A stretch of DNA of 64,000 nucleotides, taken from assembly GCF_003018255.1 (NCBI RefSeq), contig NZ_CP027440.1. One strand, written 5' to 3'. This DNA is from Escherichia coli. GTDB taxonomy: Bacteria; Pseudomonadota; Gammaproteobacteria; Enterobacterales; Enterobacteriaceae. Each line of letters opens with the position of its first letter. Position 1 is the first letter of the stretch. This document shows positions 866 to 54,470 of the stretch, one piece after another. The notes below the pieces were generated by a model. The model ran no database searches and was not told where the DNA came from. It saw only the letters and a list, made by a program, of their open reading frames with translations. A program made the translations under genes and the position numbers.

Positions 866-1330
866 ATGGAAAAGAAATTACCCCGCATTAAAGCGCTGCT
901 AACCCCCGGCGAAGTGGCAAAACGCAGCGGTGTGGCGGTATCGGCGCTGCATTTCTATGAAAGCAAAGGGTTGATTAGCAGTATCCGTAATAGTGGCAAT
1001 CAGCGGCGATATAAACGTGATGTGTTGCGATATGTCGCAATCATCAAAATTGCTCAGCGTATTGGCATTCCGCTGGCGACCATTCGTGAAGCATTTGGCG
1101 TGTTGCCCGAAGGGCATACATTAAGTGCGAAAGAGTGGAAACAGCTTTCGTCCCAATGGCGAGAAGAGTTGGATCGGCGCATTCATACCTTAGTGGCGCT
1201 GCGTGACGAGCTGGACGGATGTATTGGTTGTGGCTGCCTTTCGCGCAGTGATTGCCCATTGCGTAACCCGGGCGACCGCTTAGGAGAAGAAGGCACAGGC
1301 GCACGCTTGCTGGAAGATGAACAAAACTAA
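866..1330 (+). CDS. soxR: SoxR redox-sensing MerR-family regulator ([2Fe-2S])
   Basis: 154-aa ORF; N-terminal MerR-type HTH and C-terminal [12 protein letters not shown] cysteine cluster. Confidence 0.95.
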
Positions 1331-1355
1331 AGCGCCACAAGGGCGCTTTAGTTTG
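1323..1355. terminator. Bidirectional rho-independent terminator at soxR 3' end
   Basis: Inverted repeat AAACTAAAGCGCC..GGCGCTTTAGTTT straddling the soxR stop, with T-runs on both strands. Confidence 0.6.
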
Positions 1356-1465
1356 TTTTCCGGTCTTTGTCTTTCTCTCTATCCCGCTGGTACACAGGAG
1401 GGTTTCCCCCGACGTCAACACACCTCATTCGAGCACGTGGTGGAGGTTCCGGTTGGTGTTGATGC
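1325..1465 (-). ncRNA. ryjA: Candidate small RNA RyjA (convergent with soxR)
   Basis: Positional inference only: K-12 has a ~140-nt sRNA on the opposite strand ending at the soxR terminator. No sequence-intrinsic proof; boundaries approximate. Confidence 0.3.
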
Positions 1466-1875
1466 TTTAATTGTATGTCACCGGCGTTTCTTCGCCAGTG
1501 TAAAAGTACACTTTTTAGCCGCAATATTTTTGTCATCTCAGACGATTTTTTATCGCAATCCTGAACGGTATACGGCTCGATAACGCTGCAATCTTGCGCA
1601 TCGACGATAACGTTTGCGCATCAATTGCCTGGTTTTTCATCGTCAAGACAATAAAAGAGAAAAAAGCAGCAAACTTCGGTTGAAAAAGCCGCTATGATCG
1701 CCGGATAATCGTTTGCTTTTTTTACCACCCGTTTTGTATGCGCGGAGCTAAACGTTTGCTTTTTTGCGACGCACCAATTTGTCGCAAACCTGGAGCAGGA
1801 AGATAACGTTTCGCTGGCAGGGGATTGTCCGCCACGCATCTTGACGAAAATTAAACTCTCAGGGGATGTTTTCTT

Positions 1876-3225
1876 ATGTCTACGCCATCAGCGCGTACCG
1901 GCGGTTCACTCGACGCCTGGTTTAAAATTTCACAACGTGGAAGCACTGTCCGTCAGGAAGTGGTTGCCGGGTTAACAACATTTCTGGCGATGGTCTACTC
2001 GGTTATCGTCGTTCCAGGCATGTTGGGTAAAGCAGGCTTCCCGCCTGCGGCAGTTTTCGTTGCGACCTGTCTGGTTGCCGGACTCGGTTCTATCGTGATG
2101 GGTCTGTGGGCTAATCTGCCGTTGGCGATTGGTTGCGCCATCTCCCTGACGGCGTTTACCGCATTCAGTCTGGTGCTGGGGCAACATATTAGCGTACCTG
2201 TCGCGCTGGGTGCCGTGTTCCTGATGGGTGTGCTGTTTACGGTCATTTCTGCCACGGGTATCCGTAGCTGGATTTTGCGCAACTTGCCGCACGGTGTGGC
2301 GCACGGCACGGGGATTGGTATCGGTCTGTTCCTGCTGCTGATTGCTGCTAATGGTGTCGGTCTGGTGATTAAAAACCCACTTGATGGTCTGCCCGTCGCG
2401 CTGGGGGATTTCACGACCTTTCCGGTGATGATGTCGTTGGTGGGGCTGGCAGTGATTATCGGCCTGGAAAAACTGAAAGTCCCTGGTGGCATTCTGCTGA
2501 CCATTATCGGTATCTCAATTGTCGGTTTGATCTTCGATCCTAACGTCCATTTCTCCGGCGTTTTCGCCATGCCTTCATTGAGCGATGAAAACGGCAATTC
2601 ACTAATTGGCAGCCTGGACATTATGGGCGCGCTGAATCCTGTAGTCCTGCCAAGCGTTCTGGCGCTGGTGATGACGGCAGTATTTGATGCCACCGGAACT
2701 ATCCGTGCCGTCGCCGGCCAGGCGAACCTGCTGGATAAAGATGGGCAGATCATCGACGGCGGGAAAGCACTGACCACTGACTCCATGAGCAGCGTTTTCT
2801 CTGGCCTGGTGGGTGCAGCTCCGGCAGCGGTATACATCGAGTCTGCGGCGGGTACGGCGGCGGGCGGTAAAACCGGTTTGACGGCTATCACCGTTGGCGT
2901 GCTGTTCCTGCTGATTCTGTTCCTCTCTCCGCTCTCTTACCTCGTTCCGGGGTATGCAACGGCTCCGGCGCTGATGTACGTTGGCCTGCTGATGCTGAGT
3001 AACGTGGCGAAAATCGACTTTGCTGATTTTGTTGATGCGATGGCGGGTCTGGTTACGGCGGTATTCATCGTGCTGACCTGTAACATCGTAACAGGCATCA
3101 TGATCGGCTTCGCGACTCTGGTGATTGGTCGTCTGGTTTCCGGCGAATGGCGCAAGTTGAACATCGGTACGGTCGTTATCGCTGTGGCGCTGGTGACCTT
3201 CTATGCGGGTGGCTGGGCTATCTAA
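1876..3225 (+). CDS. ghxP: Guanine/hypoxanthine permease (NCS2/AzgA family)
   Basis: 449-aa polytopic membrane ORF; position after soxR matches yjcD/ghxP. Confidence 0.9.
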
Positions 3226-3375
3226 TCTTTCATATGATTCTGAAAACGGGTGGCAATGGCTGCCCGTTTTTATTTTCTCCGCACATTGTGTGAGCTTTTG
3301 CGATATTCTGAAAAAATGAGAATTCAGGCATAACGCCTTTCTCAGATCATAAAAAACATCGCAAACAGGGAACGC

Positions 3376-5025
3376 ATGGAAATCTTCTTCACCATACTGA
3401 TAATGACCCTCGTGGTCTCGCTGTCCGGGGTGGTCACTCGTGTCATGCCCTTTCAGATCCCGCTTCCGCTTATGCAAATCGCCATCGGTGCGCTACTGGC
3501 GTGGCCGACGTTTGGTTTGCATGTGGAGTTTGATCCTGAACTCTTTTTAGTCTTGTTTATCCCGCCGTTGCTGTTCGCTGATGGCTGGAAAACGCCGACC
3601 CGTGAATTTCTCGAACATGGTCGAGAGATTTTCGGCCTCGCGCTGGCGCTGGTGGTGGTCACCGTGGTCGGCATTGGCTTTCTTATTTACTGGGTGGTGC
3701 CGGGCATTCCGCTGATCCCCGCCTTTGCGCTGGCGGCGGTGCTTTCTCCGACCGATGCTGTGGCGCTCTCGGGGATTGTTGGCGAAGGGCGCATCCCGAA
3801 AAAAATCATGGGCATTTTGCAGGGCGAAGCGTTGATGAATGACGCCTCCGGTCTGGTGTCGTTGAAGTTTGCCGTGGCAGTGGCGATGGGGACGATGATC
3901 TTCACCGTCGGTGGTGCGACGGTCGAATTTATGAAAGTGGCCATTGGCGGTATTCTCGCCGGTTTTGTGGTGAGCTGGCTGTACGGTCGCTCGCTGCGAT
4001 TCCTCAGCCGCTGGGGCGGTGATGAACCCGCGACGCAGATCGTCCTGCTGTTCCTGCTGCCATTCGCTTCTTATCTGATTGCCGAACATATTGGCGTTTC
4101 CGGTATCCTCGCTGCGGTTGCCGCCGGGATGACCATCACCCGTTCCGGTGTGATGCGCCGTGCGCCGCTGGCAATGCGCCTGCGCGCAAACAGTACCTGG
4201 GCGATGCTGGAATTTGTCTTTAACGGCATGGTATTCCTGCTGTTAGGTCTGCAGCTGCCGGGTATTCTGGAGACGTCGCTGATGGCGGCAGAAATCGACC
4301 CTAACGTCGAAATCTGGATGCTGTTTACCGATATCATTCTGATTTATGCGGCGCTGATGCTGGTCCGTTTCGGCTGGCTGTGGACGATGAAAAAGTTCAG
4401 CAACCGCTTCCTGAAGAAGAAGCCGATGGAGTTTGGTTCGTGGACCACACGAGAAATCCTGATCGCGTCTTTCGCCGGGGTGCGTGGGGCGATCACTCTG
4501 GCTGGTGTGCTCTCAATCCCGCTGCTCTTGCCGGATGGTAACGTCTTCCCGGCGCGCTATGAGCTGGTGTTCCTGGCGGCTGGTGTCATTCTCTTCTCGC
4601 TGTTTGTCGGCGTGGTGATGTTGCCTATTCTGCTACAACACATTGAAGTCGCGGACCATTCGCAACAATTGAAAGAGGAACGTATTGCGCGAGCGGCAAC
4701 GGCAGAAGTGGCGATTGTGGCGATCCAGAAAATGGAGGAGCGTCTGGCGGCGGATACCGAAGAGAATATCGATAACCAGCTGCTCACAGAGGTTAGTTCT
4801 CGCGTCATTGGTAACCTGCGTCGTCGCGCCGATGGACGTAACGACGTTGAAAGTTCCGTGCAGGAAGAGAACCTTGAGCGTCGCTTCCGTCTGGCGGCAT
4901 TGCGTTCTGAACGTGCTGAACTGTACCACCTGCGCGCCACGCGGGAGATCAGTAACGAAACGCTGCAAAAATTACTGCACGATCTCGATTTGCTTGAAGC
5001 GTTGCTGATTGAAGAGAACCAATAA
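3376..5025 (+). CDS. yjcE: Putative Na+/H+ exchanger (CPA1 family)
   Basis: 549-aa ORF with N-terminal multi-TM domain and charged C-terminal tail. Confidence 0.85.
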   Translation: MEIFFTILIMTLVVSLSGVVTRVMPFQIPLPLMQIAIGALLAWPTFGLHVEFDPELFLVLFIPPLLFADGWKTPTREFLEHGREIFGLALALVVVTVVGIGFLIYWVVPGIPLIPAFALAAVLSPTDAVALSGIVGEGRIPKKIMGILQGEALMNDASGLVSLKFAVAVAMGTMIFTVGGATVEFMKVAIGGILAGFVVSWLYGRSLRFLSRWGGDEPATQIVLLFLLPFASYLIAEHIGVSGILAAVAAGMTITRSGVMRRAPLAMRLRANSTWAMLEFVFNGMVFLLLGLQLPGILETSLMAAEIDPNVEIWMLFTDIILIYAALMLVRFGWLWTMKKFSNRFLKKKPMEFGSWTTREILIASFAGVRGAITLAGVLSIPLLLPDGNVFPARYELVFLAAGVILFSLFVGVVMLPILLQHIEVADHSQQLKEERIARAATAEVAIVAIQKMEERLAADTEENIDNQLLTEVSSRVIGNLRRRADGRNDVESSVQEENLERRFRLAALRSERAELYHLRATREISNETLQKLLHDLDLLEALLIEENQ

Positions 5026-5043
5026 CGCTTTGGCGGTGTAATC

Positions 5044-5076
5044 GGTAAAAAGGTGCAGTACATCGCACCTTTTTAC
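5044..5076. terminator. Bidirectional hairpin terminator between convergent yjcE and actP
   Basis: GGTAAAAAGGTGC-AGTACATC-GCACCTTTTTACC: stem flanked by A-run and T-run. Confidence 0.65.
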
Positions 5077-5107
5077 CGTTGGTCAGGTGACCAGAGGCTA
5101 GTGGAGA

Positions 5108-7068
<1,961 letters not shown>

Positions 7069-7149: not shown

Positions 7150-7416
<267 letters not shown>

Positions 7417-17871: not shown

Positions 17872-18247
17872 GCCTGATGCGACGCTTACCGCGTCTTATC
17901 AGGCCTACGCCAGACTGCGCAATAGCTTGATTTAGGGTGATTTTGTAGGTCGGATAAGGCGTTTACGCCGCATCCGACATCAATATCTGATGCGACGCTT
18001 GCCGCGTCTTATCAGGCCTACGCCAGACTGCGCAATAGCTTGATTTAGGGTGATTTTGTAGGTCGGATAAGGCGTTTACGCCGCATCCGACATCAATATC
18101 TGATGCGACGCTTACCGCGTCTTATCAGGCCTACGCCAGACTGCGCAATAGCCTGATTTAGCGTGATTTTGTAGGTCGGATAAGGCGTTTACGCCGCATC
18201 CGACATCAATGCCTGATGCGACGCTTACCGCGTCTTATCAGGCCTAC
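17872..18247. repeat. BIME/REP array, three full units plus one partial, 113-bp period
   Basis: CTGATGCG motif recurs at 17874, 17987, 18100, 18213 (exact 113-bp spacing); units contain REP palindromes; fills the gltP-yjcO spacer. Confidence 0.85.
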
Positions 18248-18248
18248 C

Positions 18249-18938
18249 TTAACCGTTAGTTAATTTTTCAAACTCTTCACACCCGGTATCAAACCCTTCC
18301 ATACAGCTCAGATTTAACCAGTGCAGCGCCTTTTGTTTGTTCTTCTCGATAAAACCTTCTTCACCGTTTAAGAACATCATTCCCGCCCAGTACTCGGAAT
18401 AACCGGTTCGGGAAATCGCAGAGCTGCGTTTGAAATACCAGGTTGCCTTGTCATCGTCGGCCTTAATGCCCACGCCGTTGGCGTAAATCAAACCAAGCAG
18501 CATTTGGGCATCGACGGCAGAGTCGTTCTCCAGATCTTCCGAGGCGTTTTCTAACAGCGAAATTGCCTTTGGATAATCCGGTTTACCCGCTTGCGTATTT
18601 ACCAGAATATGCGCCAGCGTTACTTCACCTTCTTTACTGCCCGCTTGCGCCGCTTTCTCTGCAAGAACTTTTGCTTGTGGATAGTCCAGACTGACCGGAT
18701 TGGTGATTTTGATCTGCGCTAACAGCGCGCAGGCATCAGCATCACCGCTGTCGGCGGCTTTCTGTGCCCAATATTCGGCTTTGCTCAAATCGCCGGAGCT
18801 AAACCAGCTGTCGGCAAGAAAATATTGTGCGCGTCGGTCCCCTGCCTCTGCTGCCTTTAAATACTGGCTGCCAGGCTCGGAGTCGTTCGCGTGGGCAAAG
18901 AATGTCAAAAACAACATCAATGCGATAATTTTTTTCAT
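18249..18938 (-). CDS. yjcO: Sel1-repeat periplasmic protein
   Basis: 229-aa ORF with signal peptide and Sel1-like repeats. Confidence 0.8.
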   Translation of the reverse strand: MKKIIALMLFLTFFAHANDSEPGSQYLKAAEAGDRRAQYFLADSWFSSGDLSKAEYWAQKAADSGDADACALLAQIKITNPVSLDYPQAKVLAEKAAQAGSKEGEVTLAHILVNTQAGKPDYPKAISLLENASEDLENDSAVDAQMLLGLIYANGVGIKADDDKATWYFKRSSAISRTGYSEYWAGMMFLNGEEGFIEKNKQKALHWLNLSCMEGFDTGCEEFEKLTNG

Positions 18939-18989
18939 TTTGATAATACGATTGGGTAGGGAGTAACCAGTATAAAGAGTTCGAATGGA

Positions 18990-19018
18990 TAAAAAAACAG
19001 CCTCCGAAAGGAGGCTGT
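18990..19018 (-). terminator. Rho-independent terminator downstream of fdhF
   Basis: Hairpin CAGCCTCC-GAAA-GGAGGCTG followed by a T-run on the minus strand. Confidence 0.6.
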
Positions 19019-19031
19019 AGAAAGGACTGTA

Positions 19032-21179
19032 TTACGCCAGTGCCGCTTCGCGCAGGCGAGTTTTCAACTTGTTGTACTCGTCAATCACGTACTGCTCGGC
19101 GGCGCGCTGATCGGCGATCGGCTCGACGCGCACGGCGCAGTATTTGTATTCCGGCGTTTTCGTAATCGGGCTTAAGTTTTCGGTCACCAGCTCGTTACAG
19201 GCACCAATCCACCACTGGTAGGTCATGTAAATCGCCCCTTTGTTCGGACGATCGCTGACCTGCGCACGGGTGATAATTTTGCCTTTACGCGAGTGCACCC
19301 AAACCAATGCCTCATCTTCAATACCCAGACGTTTGGCGTCTTCGGTATTGATTTGTGCGTAGCCAGGTTCATCAGCCAGCGCCGCCAGTGCCGCACAGTT
19401 ACCGGTCATCGAACGGCAAGAGTAGTGACCAACTTCACGCACCGTTGACAGTACCATCGGGTATTCGTCGGTGAGTTTGTCGATTGGCGCTACCCAGTCG
19501 CAGGTGAAGAACTGCGCCAGACCGTTCGGGGTATCAAACTTCTCTTTAAACAGATAAGAAGTCCCCTGATCGGCATCTGAAGTATCGCGGCAAGGCCACT
19601 GAATGAAGCCCAGTTCGCCCATTTTCTCGTAAGTCGCACCGTAGAAATCCGGGCACAGATGACGCAACTCGTCCCAGATCTCCTGGGTGTTGTTGTAGTG
19701 CATCGGATAACCCATACGAGTGGCAATTTCACTGATGATTTGCCAGTCCGTTTTCAGATCCCACTTCGGCTCAACCGCCTTGAAGAAACGCTGGAAGCCA
19801 CGGTCAGCCGCAGTAAACACGCCTTCATGCTCGCCCCACGACGTTGACGGTAAAATGACATCCGCCGCCGACGCGGTTTTGGTCATAAAGATGTCCTGAA
19901 CGATAACCAGTTCCAGATCTTCAAAGGCTTTACGTACTGCCGACAGTTCCGCGTCAGTTTGCAGCGGATCTTCGCCCATAATGTACGCCGCTCTCACTTC
20001 ACCATGCGCCACGCGGTGCGGCAGCTCGCTGATGCGATAGCCGGTATGAGCAGGCAGGCTTTCCACGCCCCAGGCTTTGGCGAATTTCTCGCGGTTAGCC
20101 GGATCTTTCACGTACTGATAGCCCGGATACGTATCCGGCAGCGCGCCCATATCGCAGGCACCCTGCACGTTGTTCTGACCACGAACCGGGTTTACACCCG
20201 CATGTGGCTTACCGAGGTTACCGGTCAGCATCGCGAGGCTGGTCAGAGAACGCACGGTTTCCACGCCCTGATAGAACTGGGTTACCCCCATGCCCCACAG
20301 GATGGCGGCGCTTTCTGCCTGGGCATACATCCGCGCCGCCTGACGAATCTCACTGGCGCTGACGCCGGTGATATCTTCAACCGACTCCGGCGTGTAGCCT
20401 TCAACGATTTTACGATACTCTTCAAAGCCTTCTGTACGGGAAGCGACGAACGCTTTGTCGTACAGATTTTCTTCAATAATGACATGGCCCATCGCATTCA
20501 ACAGCGCGATGTTCGAGCCGTTTTTCAATGCAATGTGCATGTCAGCAATGCGCGCGGTTTCAATTTTACGCGGATCGCAGACGATAATTTTCGCCCCGTT
20601 ACGTTTAGCGTTAATTACGTGATTCGCCACGATTGGGTGGGAATCCGCCGGGTTATACCCGAAAACGAACACTAAATCGGTATTATCAATTTCGTTAATA
20701 GCATTGCTCATTGCGCCATTACCGACCGATTGGTGCAGACCTGCAACCGATGGGCCGTGTCAGACACGAGCGCAGCAGTCAACGTTATTGGTACCAATAA
20801 CGGCGCGCGCAAATTTTTGCATTACATAGTTGGTTTCGTTACCCGTACCGCGCGAGGAGCCGGTCGTCTGGATGGCATCCGGACCGTACTTCTCTTTGAT
20901 GGCGCTCAGGCGCTCGGCAACGTAATTCAGTGCCTCATCCCAGGAAACAGGTTCGAGTTTGCCGCCACGCTGGCGACGGATCATGGGGGTTTTCAGGCGC
21001 GGGGTCAGGATCTGGGTATCGTTAATGAAGTCCCAGCCATAATAACCCTTCAGACACAGGGTACCCTGGTTGGTTTTCCCCTGCGCTGCCTCCGCCCGGA
21101 CGATTTTGCCGTTATCGACGACCAGGTTGATTTTGCAACCTGATGCGCAATAGGGGCAAACCGTGACGACTTTTTTCAT
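19032..21179 (-). CDS. fdhF: Formate dehydrogenase H, selenocysteine-containing (UGA recoded)
   Basis: 139-aa and 559-aa track ORFs are in frame across a single TGA at 20757..20759 (..CCARV-U-HGPSVAG..); total 715 codons; N-terminal CPYCASGC cluster. Confidence 0.92.
20715..20756 (-). other. SECIS hairpin immediately 3' of the fdhF UGA codon
   Basis: Sequence CACGGCCCATCGGTTGCAGGTCTGCACCAATCGGTCGG directly after the in-frame UGA can form the stem-loop expected for bacterial Sec insertion. Confidence 0.7.
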
Positions 21180-21230
21180 CGGTCTCGCTCCAGTTAATCA
21201 AATCACGCATACGCGCTCTCGACTACAGTA

Positions 21231-21246
21231 TGCATCTTTTATGCCA
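21231..21246 (-). promoter_or_regulatory. Sigma-54 (-24/-12) promoter of fdhF
   Basis: Minus-strand TGGCATAAAAGATGCA matches the TGGCAC-N5-TTGCA spacing (GG and GC 10 nt apart), ~50 bp upstream of the fdhF ATG. Confidence 0.6.
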
Positions 21247-21376
21247 CATTTTATTTGGGGTCATTCCCTGATATTACGGGCACTATTTATTCAAAACTCT
21301 GACGAAAAACAGGCTGTCGTCAGTTTTGACGTGACGAAACGAAATACCGCGTGACAGCCATCACGCGGTAGACATT

Positions 21377-22843
21377 TTATTTTTTCTCGACGATGGGAGC
21401 TGCCTGATACCCGCCGCCCAGCGATTTCATCAACTGAATGCTTTGGATCACCCGGCGGCTGTCCAGCATCAGTAATGACATCTCTTCGGCAAGCACTGGC
21501 AACCGGGCTTCGGTGGCCTGTAAGCGGCTGGTTAAGCCGCGCTGATAGGCGGCCTCGGCTGCGCGCTGGGCGAAGCGCGTTGCTTCCACGCGTTCCGCCT
21601 GCATCTCTCGCTCGTCGTTGAGGGTTTGCAGACGTGTGCCGTTGACGGCAATGTCACGCACCGCGTTCAATACTGACTGGTTGTAACGTTCAATCATCAT
21701 GTTGCTGGCGGTGCGAGTGCCTTCGAGATTGGCATTCAACCGTCCACCGTCAAACAGCGGCAATTTCAGACCCGGGATGAAGTTGAACTGGCGACTGGTT
21801 TTTTTGAATAAGGTATCCAGGTGGATGGAGTCCAGACCGAAAAACGCTTTGATATCAAAGCTCGGGTAGAACAGCGCCCGCGCGGAATCCACCTGATCTA
21901 ATGACGCCTGAACATACCAGCGCATGGCTTGCAGATCCGGGCGTCTGGCGAGCAACTCATAAGAGAGCGTTGCCGGAATGCCGGTCTGTACTCGTGGTAA
22001 TGCCACCGGTTTGATCTCCGGCATATCGCTGGCTCCCGCGCCAATCAATGCACGCAGAGATTCTCGCGTTTCAGTGATTTGCCCTTTGACGGCAGCAATT
22101 TGTTTATCGACCGCCAGAATCTGTGCCCGCGCGCCGTGGAAAGGCACTTGCGCTTCCAGACCGTGCGCCACTTTACTCTGGTGCGCTTTCACCGCGTAAT
22201 CAATCACATCGCGAGTTTGTTCTAACAGATCGAGCATCTGATAGCTGGCCTGCATACTGTAATAAAGCTGCGCTACGCCCGTGGTCAGCGATAGCTCTAC
22301 TGCTGCGGTTTCTGCCAGCGCGGCATTATGCGCGCCAATGGCGGCAGCAACCGCTGAGCGATGCACACCCCACAAATCGAGATCCAGTCCGGCAAACAAA
22401 CCGACTGTGGCTTCCGTATAGTACGGCCCGTCCATACCCAGTGCTGGCGCATCCATCGCATAAGGGCTTAAAAAGCCGTTCGCCGAGACGCGTTGGCGGT
22501 TGAGCATCCCTAACGCTGCGACCTGTAATTGTGAACCGGCATCTAACAAATCGGCCTGGGACTGCGCTTTTTCTTCCCGCAGTTTCGCTTCGGCGAGGGT
22601 GTGTGAACCACTTAGCGTCCGTTGGATCAGCGCATCCAGCTGCGGGTCATTGAGTTGTTTCCACCACTGCGCCTGCGGCCAGCCGGAGCTGGCAAGATGA
22701 ATATCATCGGCCAGTTTGATTTGTTCCGGTTTGAGCTGTTGATGAGGCGCAGAATCCTTACGTACCAGGGCACAGCCGGAAATCAGCGTCGTGCTGCCGA
22801 GAATGCTGCACAACAGCAGGCGTGAAAGTTGACGATTGATCAT
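21377..22843 (-). CDS. mdtP: Outer-membrane efflux lipoprotein (TolC-like OMF)
   Basis: 488-aa ORF with lipobox (LISGCA); overlaps the mdtO stop. Confidence 0.88.
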   Translation of the reverse strand: MINRQLSRLLLCSILGSTTLISGCALVRKDSAPHQQLKPEQIKLADDIHLASSGWPQAQWWKQLNDPQLDALIQRTLSGSHTLAEAKLREEKAQSQADLLDAGSQLQVAALGMLNRQRVSANGFLSPYAMDAPALGMDGPYYTEATVGLFAGLDLDLWGVHRSAVAAAIGAHNAALAETAAVELSLTTGVAQLYYSMQASYQMLDLLEQTRDVIDYAVKAHQSKVAHGLEAQVPFHGARAQILAVDKQIAAVKGQITETRESLRALIGAGASDMPEIKPVALPRVQTGIPATLSYELLARRPDLQAMRWYVQASLDQVDSARALFYPSFDIKAFFGLDSIHLDTLFKKTSRQFNFIPGLKLPLFDGGRLNANLEGTRTASNMMIERYNQSVLNAVRDIAVNGTRLQTLNDEREMQAERVEATRFAQRAAEAAYQRGLTSRLQATEARLPVLAEEMSLLMLDSRRVIQSIQLMKSLGGGYQAAPIVEKK

Positions 22844-24891
22844 TGCGTGGCTCCTTGTGCCTGTTCCGTGGCGGGCGTTAATGCCGGGGCTGTCCAGTCT
22901 GGCAAGCGGGCGAAAAGCTGGCAGACGTGTTGCTCCTGTTTTAATAAGGTCGGCAGGATGGCCTGCGAGGCGGGTGTTTCTTCAAGCGTTATTTGAGGAG
23001 AATGACTGAGTGCGGTAGCTACACCGGCGGCGTATTTCTCCAGGGCGTCGGCAAACTGACCTGCTCTGTCCGGCTGTAGTGCGTTATCCAGCGCCTGCGC
23101 CGAGTTCCAGGTAACATCCCAGGCGTGAAGAATATCGCGGCCCTGACGAATAACCGTTTGCGAACGTTCAATCAGTAATGCGCGTTCTTCGCTGTCCAGT
23201 TGACGCTCCAGCACCACGCGTTGGCACATCTCTTCACAGGCATTAAACGCCGCATGCAGACCTATGCGAATTTGCAGATAAGTGCGCAGAGCCGTGACTT
23301 CCTGCTGGCGTGGGATCCGCATTACTTTACTCAACATACCCAGCGCGCCAGCCAGTTTTTGCGGCAGCGTGCGCGCTTCGCTTTCAGGCCAGACAAAGGT
23401 GTAAATCACCGCCGACACCACGGTACCAATGATGATACCCAGAGCGCGATCGCGAATTTCCACCAGGTCGTACACCGGGCCAAAAACGTTTTCGAGCGTG
23501 GCGAGCGCGAAGGTGACCACCATCTGTGTGCCGATATAAGAAGAGCGTTCAGAGCTGGTGGCAATCCATGCGCCCAACAGGAAAATCGGTGCCAGCACAA
23601 ACAGCAATTCGACAATATTGTCCAGCCAGGGCATGACCAATAACGTGAATAACAGCGCCAGAATCGCGCCGCAAAAGGCCCCGCCAAAACGCAGCACCAT
23701 CTTCTGGTACGACGAACCGACATTGGGATTAGCGACGATCACGCAGGTCAGCATACAGGTGTGAATGCCTTCCCAGTCCACGCCGCTGTAGAAGGTGTAA
23801 CAGATCAAACAGGCGAGCAGCGTTTTTACCGCGTAGCGCATATAGTCTGGATTGGTAAAAGCGTCGGCGACCATTGATGGCGGTTTGGTGGCGGGCGTTG
23901 GCGGCGTATTCGGGTCCATCTGACCCAGTTGCAATAACGTCTGGCAGATATTCTCCAGGTTACATTCCCGTGCCGCCATCGCTTCACTTTCAGTGATCCG
24001 CCAGTCGCTTTGCCAGCACTGACCTTCGGCAATGGCATGCTGCAGCTTGTTGATTTCTGAGGCTAATTTTTGCCGAAATTCAATAATTGCCTGAGAATCA
24101 GCAAAAGAGGTGGGATCGTAGCGATTCAGCGTCGAGTAAATGTAGGTTACCGTTGCCACGCAGCTTTGCCACCATGCGCTCTGAGTTCGCCAGTTGGCAT
24201 CGTCCGCGAGGCAAAAGACATTGAGTTTTTGCAGCGCCAGCGCCTCTCTTTCAATCCGCGTTTCGGGTAGCGGTGCGAGGCTGTCCGTCAGGTGGCTAAT
24301 GGCATCATCAAGCCGATCATTAAGCGCCTGATGCATCTGCGTGATAGCGCGGCTGGGAAACCACAGCACGCCGATTAACGTCATCAGCAAGGTTGGATAG
24401 AGGCCGACAACGATACACCACAGGGTTAAGCGCACGACCACTTCCGGATAGTCGAGCATGGCGGGGAAGGTTTGCCCGTAAATAGCGACTATGGCGACGG
24501 CGAAAAAGACCAGCCCCAACCGATGGGTGCGCATCAAAAACATACAGCCCATCAGGATCGGTCCGGCGATGATCAATCGGATCAACGGTTCGCCGTATGA
24601 CCATTTGTAGATCAAAAACAGGCTGCCGATCTCCAGCACCGTGGCAACCACAAACAAGATCGCGACAAATTTGGTGTAAAACGCGTTCGACTGAATACCG
24701 TAAAACAGCACTGCCAGCGATAACGCCACAAAAGGGATCTCAAAGGTCATCGAGATCAGAATTACCAGCAGGCAGCCTACCCAGAGTTGCACGGTCTGCG
24801 GCACGCGACCTGGCCGCCGCTCGCTTAACTCTTCATGAAAGAACGCCAGCAGCCTGACCACCGGTAATGGCAGGGAGTTGAGCGCGCTCAT
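22840..24891 (-). CDS. mdtO: Inner-membrane efflux component (FUSC/PET family)
   Basis: 683-aa ORF with N- and C-terminal hydrophobic blocks; overlaps the mdtN stop. Confidence 0.88.
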   Translation of the reverse strand: MSALNSLPLPVVRLLAFFHEELSERRPGRVPQTVQLWVGCLLVILISMTFEIPFVALSLAVLFYGIQSNAFYTKFVAILFVVATVLEIGSLFLIYKWSYGEPLIRLIIAGPILMGCMFLMRTHRLGLVFFAVAIVAIYGQTFPAMLDYPEVVVRLTLWCIVVGLYPTLLMTLIGVLWFPSRAITQMHQALNDRLDDAISHLTDSLAPLPETRIEREALALQKLNVFCLADDANWRTQSAWWQSCVATVTYIYSTLNRYDPTSFADSQAIIEFRQKLASEINKLQHAIAEGQCWQSDWRITESEAMAARECNLENICQTLLQLGQMDPNTPPTPATKPPSMVADAFTNPDYMRYAVKTLLACLICYTFYSGVDWEGIHTCMLTCVIVANPNVGSSYQKMVLRFGGAFCGAILALLFTLLVMPWLDNIVELLFVLAPIFLLGAWIATSSERSSYIGTQMVVTFALATLENVFGPVYDLVEIRDRALGIIIGTVVSAVIYTFVWPESEARTLPQKLAGALGMLSKVMRIPRQQEVTALRTYLQIRIGLHAAFNACEEMCQRVVLERQLDSEERALLIERSQTVIRQGRDILHAWDVTWNSAQALDNALQPDRAGQFADALEKYAAGVATALSHSPQITLEETPASQAILPTLLKQEQHVCQLFARLPDWTAPALTPATEQAQGATQ

Positions 24892-44136: not shown

Positions 44137-44916
44137 TCAGATAAAGTGCTTACGCAACCGTTGAGAGAGGAAATCCAGCAGGCTGACCGTGACGATAATC
44201 AGCACCATCAGGGCGCAGGTTTGCTGGAACTGGAAACCGCGAATCGCTTCCCACAGGGTGACGCCGATCCCGCCCGCGCCGACCATGCCAACAACGGTGG
44301 CCGAACGGACGTTGGATTCGAAGCGATAGAGGGAGTAGGAGATCAGCAGCGGCATCACCTGCGGCAGCACGCCGTAGAGGATCTCTTCGAGCTTGTTGGC
44401 ACCAGTGGCGCGAATACCTTCCACCGGGCCGGGTTCAATTGCTTCTACCGCTTCGGAAAGCAGTTTGGAGAGCACGCCGGTGGTGTGGATAAACAGCGCC
44501 AGTACGCCAGCGAACGGACCGAGACCGACGGCGACCACGAACAGCATGGCGAAGACCATCTCGTTAATGGCGCGGCAGGCGTCCATCAGGCGGCGAACGG
44601 GCTGATACACCCACCACGGCACCAGGTTTTCAGCGCTCATCAGGCCGAAGGGGATGGAGAGAACGACTGCCAGCGCGGTGCCCCAGACGGCGATTTGCAG
44701 CGTGACGGCCATTTCGGTGAGGTAATCCTGCCATTGGCTGAAATCGGGCGGGAAGAAGTCGGCGGCGAAGGTTGCCATGTTGCCGCCGTCTTTGATCAGC
44801 GTAAGCGGGGCCATTTCCGCGCCCTGCCACGAGACGACCAACACGGCGAGAACAATGGCCCAGCTCAGAAGCGAGAACCAGCTGCGCTTGGGTGGGGCGA
44901 TGGTGATGGTTTGCAT
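44137..44916 (-). CDS. phnE: Phosphonate ABC transporter permease (intact allele)
   Basis: Single continuous ORF (259 aa from MQTITIAPP; 280 aa from an upstream in-frame start), with no frameshift. Confidence 0.85.
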
Positions 44917-44931
44917 GTTTGGCTCCGGTCT

Positions 44932-45018
44932 GTAGGCCGGATAAGGTGCTTGCACCGCATCCGGCATCAACGTCTGCACATTGTCGGATGCGACGCCGGG
45001 GCGTCTTATCCGACCTAC
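44932..45018. repeat. REP pair inside the phn operon (phnD-phnE spacer)
   Basis: GTAGGCCGGATAAGGTGCTTGCACCGCATCCGGCA and GTCGGATGCGACGCCGGGGCGTCTTATCCGACCTAC. Confidence 0.8.
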
Positions 45019-47471: not shown

Positions 47472-47580
<109 letters not shown>

Positions 47581-53193: not shown

Positions 53194-53243
53194 GCTGAAA
53201 CGGATGGCCTGATGTGACGCTGTCTTATCAGGCCAATTGAACT

Positions 53244-53260
53244 CTTAAGGTTCACTTAAT
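53244..53260 (+). promoter_or_regulatory. BasR/PmrA box upstream of pmrR
   Basis: CTTAAG-GTTCA-CTTAAT, ~45 bp upstream of the pmrR ATG. Confidence 0.6.
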
Positions 53261-53304
53261 CTCTGACGCGCATACTCTCCTCCAGGTTAACGGAGGAGAG
53301 TGCA

Positions 53305-53394
53305 ATGAAAAACCGTGTTTATGAAAGTTTAACTACCGTGTTCAGCGTGCTGGTGGTCAGCAGCTTTCTTTATATCTGGTTTGCCACGTTCTGA
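53305..53394 (+). CDS. pmrR: PmrR small membrane peptide (29 aa)
   Basis: ATG preceded by GGAGGAG RBS; encodes MKNRVYESLTTVFSVLVVSSFLYIWFATF. Below the ORF-track length cut-off; overlaps basS 3' end antisense. Confidence 0.7.
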   Translation: MKNRVYESLTTVFSVLVVSSFLYIWFATF

Positions 53395-54470
53395 TCTTTC
53401 TTCAGCCGTACCCAGGCCCGCGTGCCGGAAGTCTCTTGCCGGTTTTGCAGGAAAAACTGCCCGTGATGCAACTGTGTAATGCGGCTGACAATACTTAACC
53501 CCAGACCAATCCCGCCATAACGGCTGTCCATACGTACAAACGCTTTACTCAACTCCCCGCATTTACTCTCATCAATACCCGGTCCTTCATCTTCAACGGC
53601 CATGACCGCTCCGCCATCTTCTTGCAGCTTAATCATAATGTTGCTGCCTTGCGGGCTGTAACGATGGGCGTTTTCTACCAGGTTTCGCAATAACATCCGC
53701 AGCAGGGTTGCATCACCCTGAACGGTGATGTCGGCGGCGCTCTCTGGCAATAGCAGGTTTTGCTGTCGCTGGTCGAGCATGGTACTGAGTTCGTCATACG
53801 AGGGGAGAATGACATCTTCCAGCAGTTTTACATGTTGATAATTACCGGAAGAAAATGACTGTCCGGCACGCGCCAGTTGCAGCAGCTGGGAGACACTCTC
53901 CATCATCTGATCAAGTCGAGCCACTAACGGTGCTACATCAATGTGATGCGTTTTCGCCAGCAGTTCCAGATGCAAACGCACCCCCGCCAGTGGCGTTCGC
54001 AGTTCGTGCGCGACGTCAGCGGTAAACAACCTTTCGTTATCCAGCGTGCTGGTCAGGCGACTGACCAGATCGTTCAACGCCGAAACCACCGCTTCGATTT
54101 CGAGGGTGGCGCTGTGAATGGCAATAGGCGTTAAGTTGTCGGCGGTGCGCGCTTCCAGCTCTTTTTGCAGCTCCGCCAGCGGCCGGGTGATGCGGCGTAC
54201 CGCCTGATAGCAGATAAATAGCGTCAGGCTGACCATAAAGACGCCGGGGACGATCAGGCTGGCGACCGCCTCGCGGATCTCACGCATGATGTGGCGATCG
54301 TTGTTGCGATTGTCGCGTAGCGCCTGCTCAAACAGCTGAATCTGCTCGGTACTTTCATGCCATAGCCAGAAGACGCTGATCAGCTCAAACACCAACAAAA
54401 TGGCCCCAATGGTCAATATCAGCCGTTGGCGCAGCGATATTGGTCGGCGCAGAAAACGCATCAGATTCAA
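53370..54470 (-). CDS. basS: Sensor histidine kinase BasS/PmrB
   Basis: ~363-aa ORF with H-box ADVAHELRTPL; exact start uncertain. Confidence 0.9.
   Translation of the reverse strand: MNLMRFLRRPISLRQRLILTIGAILLVFELISVFWLWHESTEQIQLFEQALRDNRNNDRHIMREIREAVASLIVPGVFMVSLTLFICYQAVRRITRPLAELQKELEARTADNLTPIAIHSATLEIEAVVSALNDLVSRLTSTLDNERLFTADVAHELRTPLAGVRLHLELLAKTHHIDVAPLVARLDQMMESVSQLLQLARAGQSFSSGNYQHVKLLEDVILPSYDELSTMLDQRQQNLLLPESAADITVQGDATLLRMLLRNLVENAHRYSPQGSNIMIKLQEDGGAVMAVEDEGPGIDESKCGELSKAFVRMDSRYGGIGLGLSIVSRITQLHHGQFFLQNRQETSGTRAWVRLKKDQNVANQI

Follow-up and report, generated by a model that had tools for sequence, protein, structure and literature searches.

The stretch of Escherichia coli DNA analysed here (the window; 64,000 nucleotides) has the 'empty' allele at a polymorphic site with three states that lies between two convergent core genes. 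One of them is yjcE, encoding a Na+/H+ antiporter of 549 aa (positions 3376-5025, plus strand; NCBIfam TIGR00831, 851 bits), and the other is actP, encoding the cation/acetate symporter ActP, also of 549 aa (5108-6757, minus strand; NCBIfam TIGR02711, 1145 bits). Since the stop codons lie at 5023-5025 and, on the reverse strand, at 5108-5110, the intergenic gap on which the two genes converge is exactly 5026-5107, or 82 bp. The surrounding gene order, pdeC-soxS-soxR-ghxP-yjcE-actP-yjcH-acs-nrfA, is the usual one for E. coli.

An earlier note, made from the sequence alone, had reported the 82-bp spacing and stated that yjcF, a pentapeptide-repeat gene of ~1.3 kb located between yjcE and actP in K-12, was missing from the gap, with neither a remnant open reading frame nor flanking direct repeats. 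Each of these statements was borne out. The 82 bp contain no open reading frame, and tblastn of the whole 64-kb window with K-12 YjcF as query returned no match and no remnant. A tblastn search of the same 64 kb with the LysR, LrgA and LrgB proteins of strain IHE3034 was likewise without a match. We found no insertion sequence remnant, terminal inverted repeats or target-site direct repeats within the 82 bp, and composition showed no anomaly at the junction. An Rfam search of the whole window in gathering mode placed no sRNA or REP element at the junction, and in E-value mode the junction gave chance snoRNA matches only, with no sRNA or REP.

The last four sense codons of yjcE in the window are GAA GAG AAC CAA (5011-5022), whereas both cassette-type alleles (described below) and K-12-type alleles end the gene with GAG GAA AAT CAG. 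These four third-position changes at 5013, 5016, 5019 and 5022 are synonymous and travel with the empty junction in E. coli.

In K-12 MG1655 the flanking genes and their convergent orientation are as in the window, but the yjcE-actP gap measures 1623 bp and holds espX5, which is identical with yjcF (1293 bp, minus strand; 3480-4772 of the retrieved K-12 locus). The encoded protein (430 aa) matches Pfam pentapeptide-repeat families. The K-12 hairpin on the yjcE side, AAAAAGGTGC...GCACCTTT, is homologous to that of the window; the difference consists of 1541 extra bp (33% G+C) and an intact separate actP terminator, both of which the window lacks. With a G+C content of 32.9% compared with 55.8% in the flanks, yjcF looks horizontally acquired. 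A search around K-12 yjcF for target-site duplications and terminal repeats yielded only short chance matches, the hairpin itself aside.

We surveyed 5426 complete E. coli genomes, in 5420 of which the locus was present. The K-12-type segment with yjcF/espX5 was found in 4118 genomes (76%) and the contiguous empty junction in 262-264 (about 4.8%); thus, the 82-bp junction is the arrangement of neither K-12 nor most E. coli. Roughly 1040 genomes had neither the yjcF segment nor the contiguous junction, and a LysR-LrgA-LrgB cassette was detected in 1038 genomes, mostly of B2. The sum of 4118, 1038 and 262 is 5418 of the 5420 genomes with the locus. The three states therefore exclude one another, and by this partition of the counts the empty-junction genomes very probably carry no K-12-type yjcF elsewhere. 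Carriers of the empty junction include EPEC O127:H6 E2348/69, APEC O78:H4 strains and APEC O2-211, and a junction identical to that of the window occurs in JNE23-011, JNE112863 and 2017.09.02CC. Among the cassette carriers are IHE3034, ATCC 11775, ST131, ST95 and ATCC 25922. The earlier note had described a strain-level presence/absence difference. The polymorphism is real, but the cassette state was overlooked, and the framing 'yjcF present or absent' is incomplete because this third state fills the same gap.

IS1 was encountered twice at the site, both cases being rare fourth states. In Res13-Lact-PEB21-38-A it replaces most of yjcF and leaves 187 bp of the K-12-type gap (3001-3997 of the retrieved locus), and in strain R2 it is inserted within espX5. 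Strain GF66.1 was considered as an intermediate combining yjcF with an empty-type right flank and was rejected, as its allele is of the ordinary K-12 type with one additional base matching.

The third state is represented by IHE3034, where the gap is occupied by a 2154-bp cassette (1851-4004 of the retrieved locus) comprising a LysR regulator gene on the minus strand and genes for a CidA/LrgA protein and an LrgB protein. The lysR gene is transcribed divergently from the lrgA-lrgB-like genes, and the cassette adjoins the acetate-uptake genes actP-yjcH-acs. Such B2-type loci (IHE3034, ATCC 11775, ST131) have the same flanks as the window and differ from it by the cassette and by another yjcE terminator hairpin, both absent from the window; the actP side of the window is nevertheless nearer to IHE3034 than to K-12. 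The cassette has probably been little studied in E. coli because K-12 lacks it.

To examine ancestry, we searched one genome per species with YjcE as query and mapped the neighbouring genes by tblastn, which yielded 80 loci, among which E. fergusonii, E. marmotae and E. ruysiae were not identifiable. The order yjcE-lysR-lrgA-lrgB-actP was found in Citrobacter, Enterobacter, Lelliottia, Raoultella/Klebsiella, Kluyvera, Yokenella, Trabulsiella, Cedecea, Shimwellia, Mixta and Erwinia as well as in Escherichia whittamii, and the cassette is thus the arrangement of nearly all other Enterobacteriaceae sampled. This distribution indicates that the cassette is ancestral and that K-12 is not the ancestral reference. 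Its G+C content (51.5%) is close to that of the flanks. None of the 80 non-E. coli loci held a yjcF homologue at the site. In other genera we also observed extra DNA in the yjcE-lysR gap (2.5-3.6 kb; n=5 loci) and in the lrgB-actP gap (about 1.4 kb; n=7 loci), which suggests that, across the family, insertions recur in the terminator regions of this site.

The 82-bp gap itself is dominated by a hairpin, CGGTAAAAAGGTGC-AGTACATC-GCACCTTTTTACCG, which was detected by folding at 5043-5078 on both strands. Its 14-bp stem is formed by CGGUAAAAAGGUGC and GCACCUUUUUACCG around an 8-nt loop. The gap folds with -33.4 kcal/mol on the plus strand (z -4.2) and -31.4 kcal/mol on the minus strand (z -6.4), and none of 200 shuffled sequences folded as well. 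The G+C core of the hairpin, GGTGC (5052-5056) paired with GCACC (5065-5069), is abutted by A5 (5047-5051) and T5 (5070-5074), so that a stem-loop is followed by UUUUU on either strand. This layout resembles that of bidirectional intrinsic (Rho-independent) terminators between convergent genes, in which a G+C stem lies between an A-run and a T-run and gives a U-tract on both strands. In the window, however, the core has only 5 bp, with a loop of 8 nt and a U-tract of 5 nt, and a consensus terminator and promoter scan of 4800-5300 called no site. We infer that the scan remained silent because pairing between the A and T runs makes them count as extended stem. By its anatomy the main hairpin is a putative bidirectional intrinsic terminator.

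A second small hairpin, TTGGTC-AGGT-GACCAG, folds at 5079-5094; it is homologous to the actP terminator CCCCGGTCAGACGACCGGGG but degenerate, whereas this terminator is intact in K-12 and in cassette-type alleles. The hairpin that the earlier note placed between the two genes is thus real, with A5/T5 anatomy, and is joined by the additional small one. In the empty allele, the former actP terminator would have decayed, and the anatomy of the main hairpin makes it most likely that this single structure ends both converging transcripts.

The main hairpin matched no Rfam family. Its pattern is present as a single copy in the window and no naRNA4/REP match falls on the junction, so the hairpin does not behave as a REP/BIME or other repeated element. 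All eight naRNA4 matches of the window lie elsewhere. At Rfam gathering scores, REP-type naRNA4 clusters occupy the yjcH-acs gap (7160-7412) and the gltP-yjcO gap (17948-18244), and further naRNA4 matches are situated in the phn region (44935-45015 and 47492-47569). The same search placed the sRNA sraL/ryjA beside soxR (1323-1463, minus strand), the SECIS element of fdhF at 20713-20767 (minus strand) and STnc630 at 53236-53401. In the phn region, an intact phnE of 780 bp is annotated in JNE23-011 at coordinates that match 44138-44917 (minus strand) of the window; in K-12, phnE is a frameshifted pseudogene.

Comparison of the alleles on either side of the gap provides information on their relationships. 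Outside the E. coli survey, three Escherichia representatives carry the empty junction with the same hairpin, namely E. albertii NBRC 107761 (82 bp), Escherichia sp. MOD1-EC7003 (97 bp) and strain SCPM-O-B-8794 (82 bp, with 7 differences from the window). In E2348/69 it comprises 82 bp with two positions differing from the window (6077-6158 of the retrieved locus). Architecture and hairpin are as in the window in EPEC E2348/69, APEC O78:H4 and O2-211, E. albertii and MOD1-EC7003, with the differences that E. albertii lacks the second small hairpin and that the left arm in both MOD1-EC7003 and E. albertii contains a run of 15 nt with no counterpart in the window. Sharing of the empty junction by E. 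albertii and two more lineages of Escherichia indicates that the allele is old.

On the yjcE side, the K-12 allele aligns with the empty alleles of E. albertii and MOD1-EC7003 through the yjcE-side hairpin, suggesting that empty and yjcF alleles share an ancestor that was already without the cassette. All alleles of the empty and yjcF types keep the main hairpin. In cassette alleles the yjcE-side hairpin is an unrelated one, GGTTGGCGGGCGAGCCCGCCAACC, and the main-hairpin motif was absent from every cassette-bearing locus. The 82 bp are thus not a simple join of the cassette flanks, and their origin by simple deletion of the cassette is ruled out. Homology among all the alleles extends over about 30 nt on the actP side. 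The actP terminator is intact in K-12 (ATTCCCCGGTCAGACGACCGGGG, cassette-type) and decayed in the empties (GGTCAGGTGACC), and about a third of the positions in the right flank of the empties differ from the other alleles, K-12 included.

The explanation that we consider probable as a whole is that of a three-state site with an ancestral cassette, a later hairpin segment and alleles exchanged by recombination. The ancestral enterobacterial state would be yjcE followed convergently by lysR, with lrgA and lrgB reading towards actP (yjcE > < lysR, lrgA >, lrgB > < actP). Within Escherichia, the cassette together with the yjcE-side terminator would have been replaced by a short segment containing the A5-GGTGC-loop-GCACC-T5 hairpin. 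One descendant of this hairpin allele would have received the AT-rich, foreign yjcF/espX5 between the hairpin and the actP terminator, giving the state of K-12 and 76% of E. coli; the other would hold no gene there, a state found in about 5% of E. coli (the window among them), in E. albertii and in another two lineages of Escherichia. That the site is flanked by core genes would be the reason why the alleles can be swapped between lineages by homologous recombination.

As to the polarity between the two hairpin alleles, we lean slightly towards a haplotype that never held yjcF, the gene having been inserted into a sister allele of the empty type. The left flank and the species distribution favour such an insertion. 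The state of the actP terminator, intact in K-12 and degenerate in the empties, fits equally well or better with yjcF replacing the cassette and the empties arising later by deletion. Whichever polarity holds, the right-flank divergence and the four linked yjcE changes indicate that the empty allele is old.

The empty junction may instead be a deletion derivative of the yjcF allele that was spread by recombination, including into other Escherichia species; we regard this as a credible but less probable origin. Here, the 1.54-kb AT-rich segment and the outer stem of the actP terminator would have been excised between the short similar motifs GCTCGG and GGTCAG, for which GCTCGGGC just after the K-12 hairpin and GGTCAG in the actP terminator offer possible microhomology. 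The left-flank hairpin common to both alleles agrees with such an excision, as does the ancestral actP terminator, which is intact in K-12 and has lost its outer stem in the empties. The IS1-associated partial loss of yjcF in Res13-Lact-PEB21-38-A moreover indicates that the gene is dispensable and does get lost. However, the empty allele occurs in E. albertii and two other lineages although no yjcF homologue was seen at the site in the 80 non-E. coli loci, so this origin requires inter-species transfer of the deleted allele. The gap also retains no remnant of yjcF, and a recent deletion is excluded, since roughly one position in three of the empties' right flank deviates from K-12.

It is conceivable, though in our view rather unlikely, that the yjcE/actP gap is a long-lived polymorphism across Escherichia in which niche-dependent or balancing selection acts while short-patch recombination shuffles the alleles. 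The three alleles would then differ in function, offering a transporter cassette of the LrgAB type plus the LysR regulator, a putative pentapeptide-repeat effector, or nothing, and the empty allele would be selected rather than a neutral loss.

A recent, clean and strain-specific deletion of the LysR-LrgAB cassette or of yjcF in the isolate's own lineage is very improbable. In its favour, the collection contains few near relatives (JNE23-011, JNE112863 and 2017.09.02CC), and these share the identical junction. Yet the junction occurs in 262 genomes of several lineages, E2348/69 and APEC O78:H4 included, and in three other Escherichia taxa, and yjcE bears four linked synonymous changes in its last, yjcF-proximal codons, the mark of an old haplotype; this spread, together with the main hairpin that is nonexistent in cassette alleles, refutes the proposal. 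That a gene was removed by an assembly or collapse artefact is refuted by the identical junction in independently finished genomes (262-264 complete genomes) and by the lack of repeats able to cause a collapse, and its probability is negligible.

Recombination at the site, which forms part of the favoured explanation of a three-state site with exchanged alleles, was investigated by comparing E2348/69 (empty) with IHE3034 (cassette). Both strains are B2, and their YjcE, ActP and YjcH proteins are identical. On the left of the junction, the two sequences differ at distances of 3, 6, 9, 12, 96, 281, 312, 426 and 450 nt, and on its right at 42, 207 and 213 nt; past these, no further difference is seen up to 1920 nt on the left side or 1242 nt on the right side. 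This pattern is typical of a short patch, imported by homologous recombination within B2, that brought one allele into the background of the other.

Judged by sequence identities, the window too is a mosaic around the site. Against K-12, yjcE of the window reaches 98-99% identity, but the 3'-terminal ~900 bp of actP reach only 92-94%; for this part of actP, identity to the B2 strain IHE3034 is 95-99%. The switch in haplotype between yjcE and the 3' end of actP (5108-6000) coincides with the polymorphic gap. The closest relative of the window is JNE23-011, with 99.7% identity over 24 kb; a match over the full window was not found for any genome in the collection. In roughly the first 18.6 kb, window and JNE23-011 differ at only two positions (7201 and 13048). 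From 18623 to 24000, through yjcO-fdhF-mdtP, the window is SNP-dense relative to JNE23-011, which suggests a recombination boundary near 18.6 kb.

The presence or absence of espX5 is routinely tabulated in virulome surveys, and one virulome screen refers to it as an EPEC virulence gene 'located on the LEE' and uses it as an EPEC/LEE marker (PMC10893164). Our comparison identifies espX5 as the K-12 gene yjcF at a non-LEE site, carried by 76% of complete E. coli genomes, and the prototype EPEC strain E2348/69 is empty at this site; as a marker of pathotype, espX5 looks poor. RefSeq annotation already covers all three alleles, which are ordinary pan-genome variation, and as routine accessory-gene variation at a core-genome junction the finding carries little weight alone. 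For E. coli, its meaning is that K-12 is a misleading reference at this gap, as the ancestral content is the LysR-LrgAB cassette that K-12 is missing.
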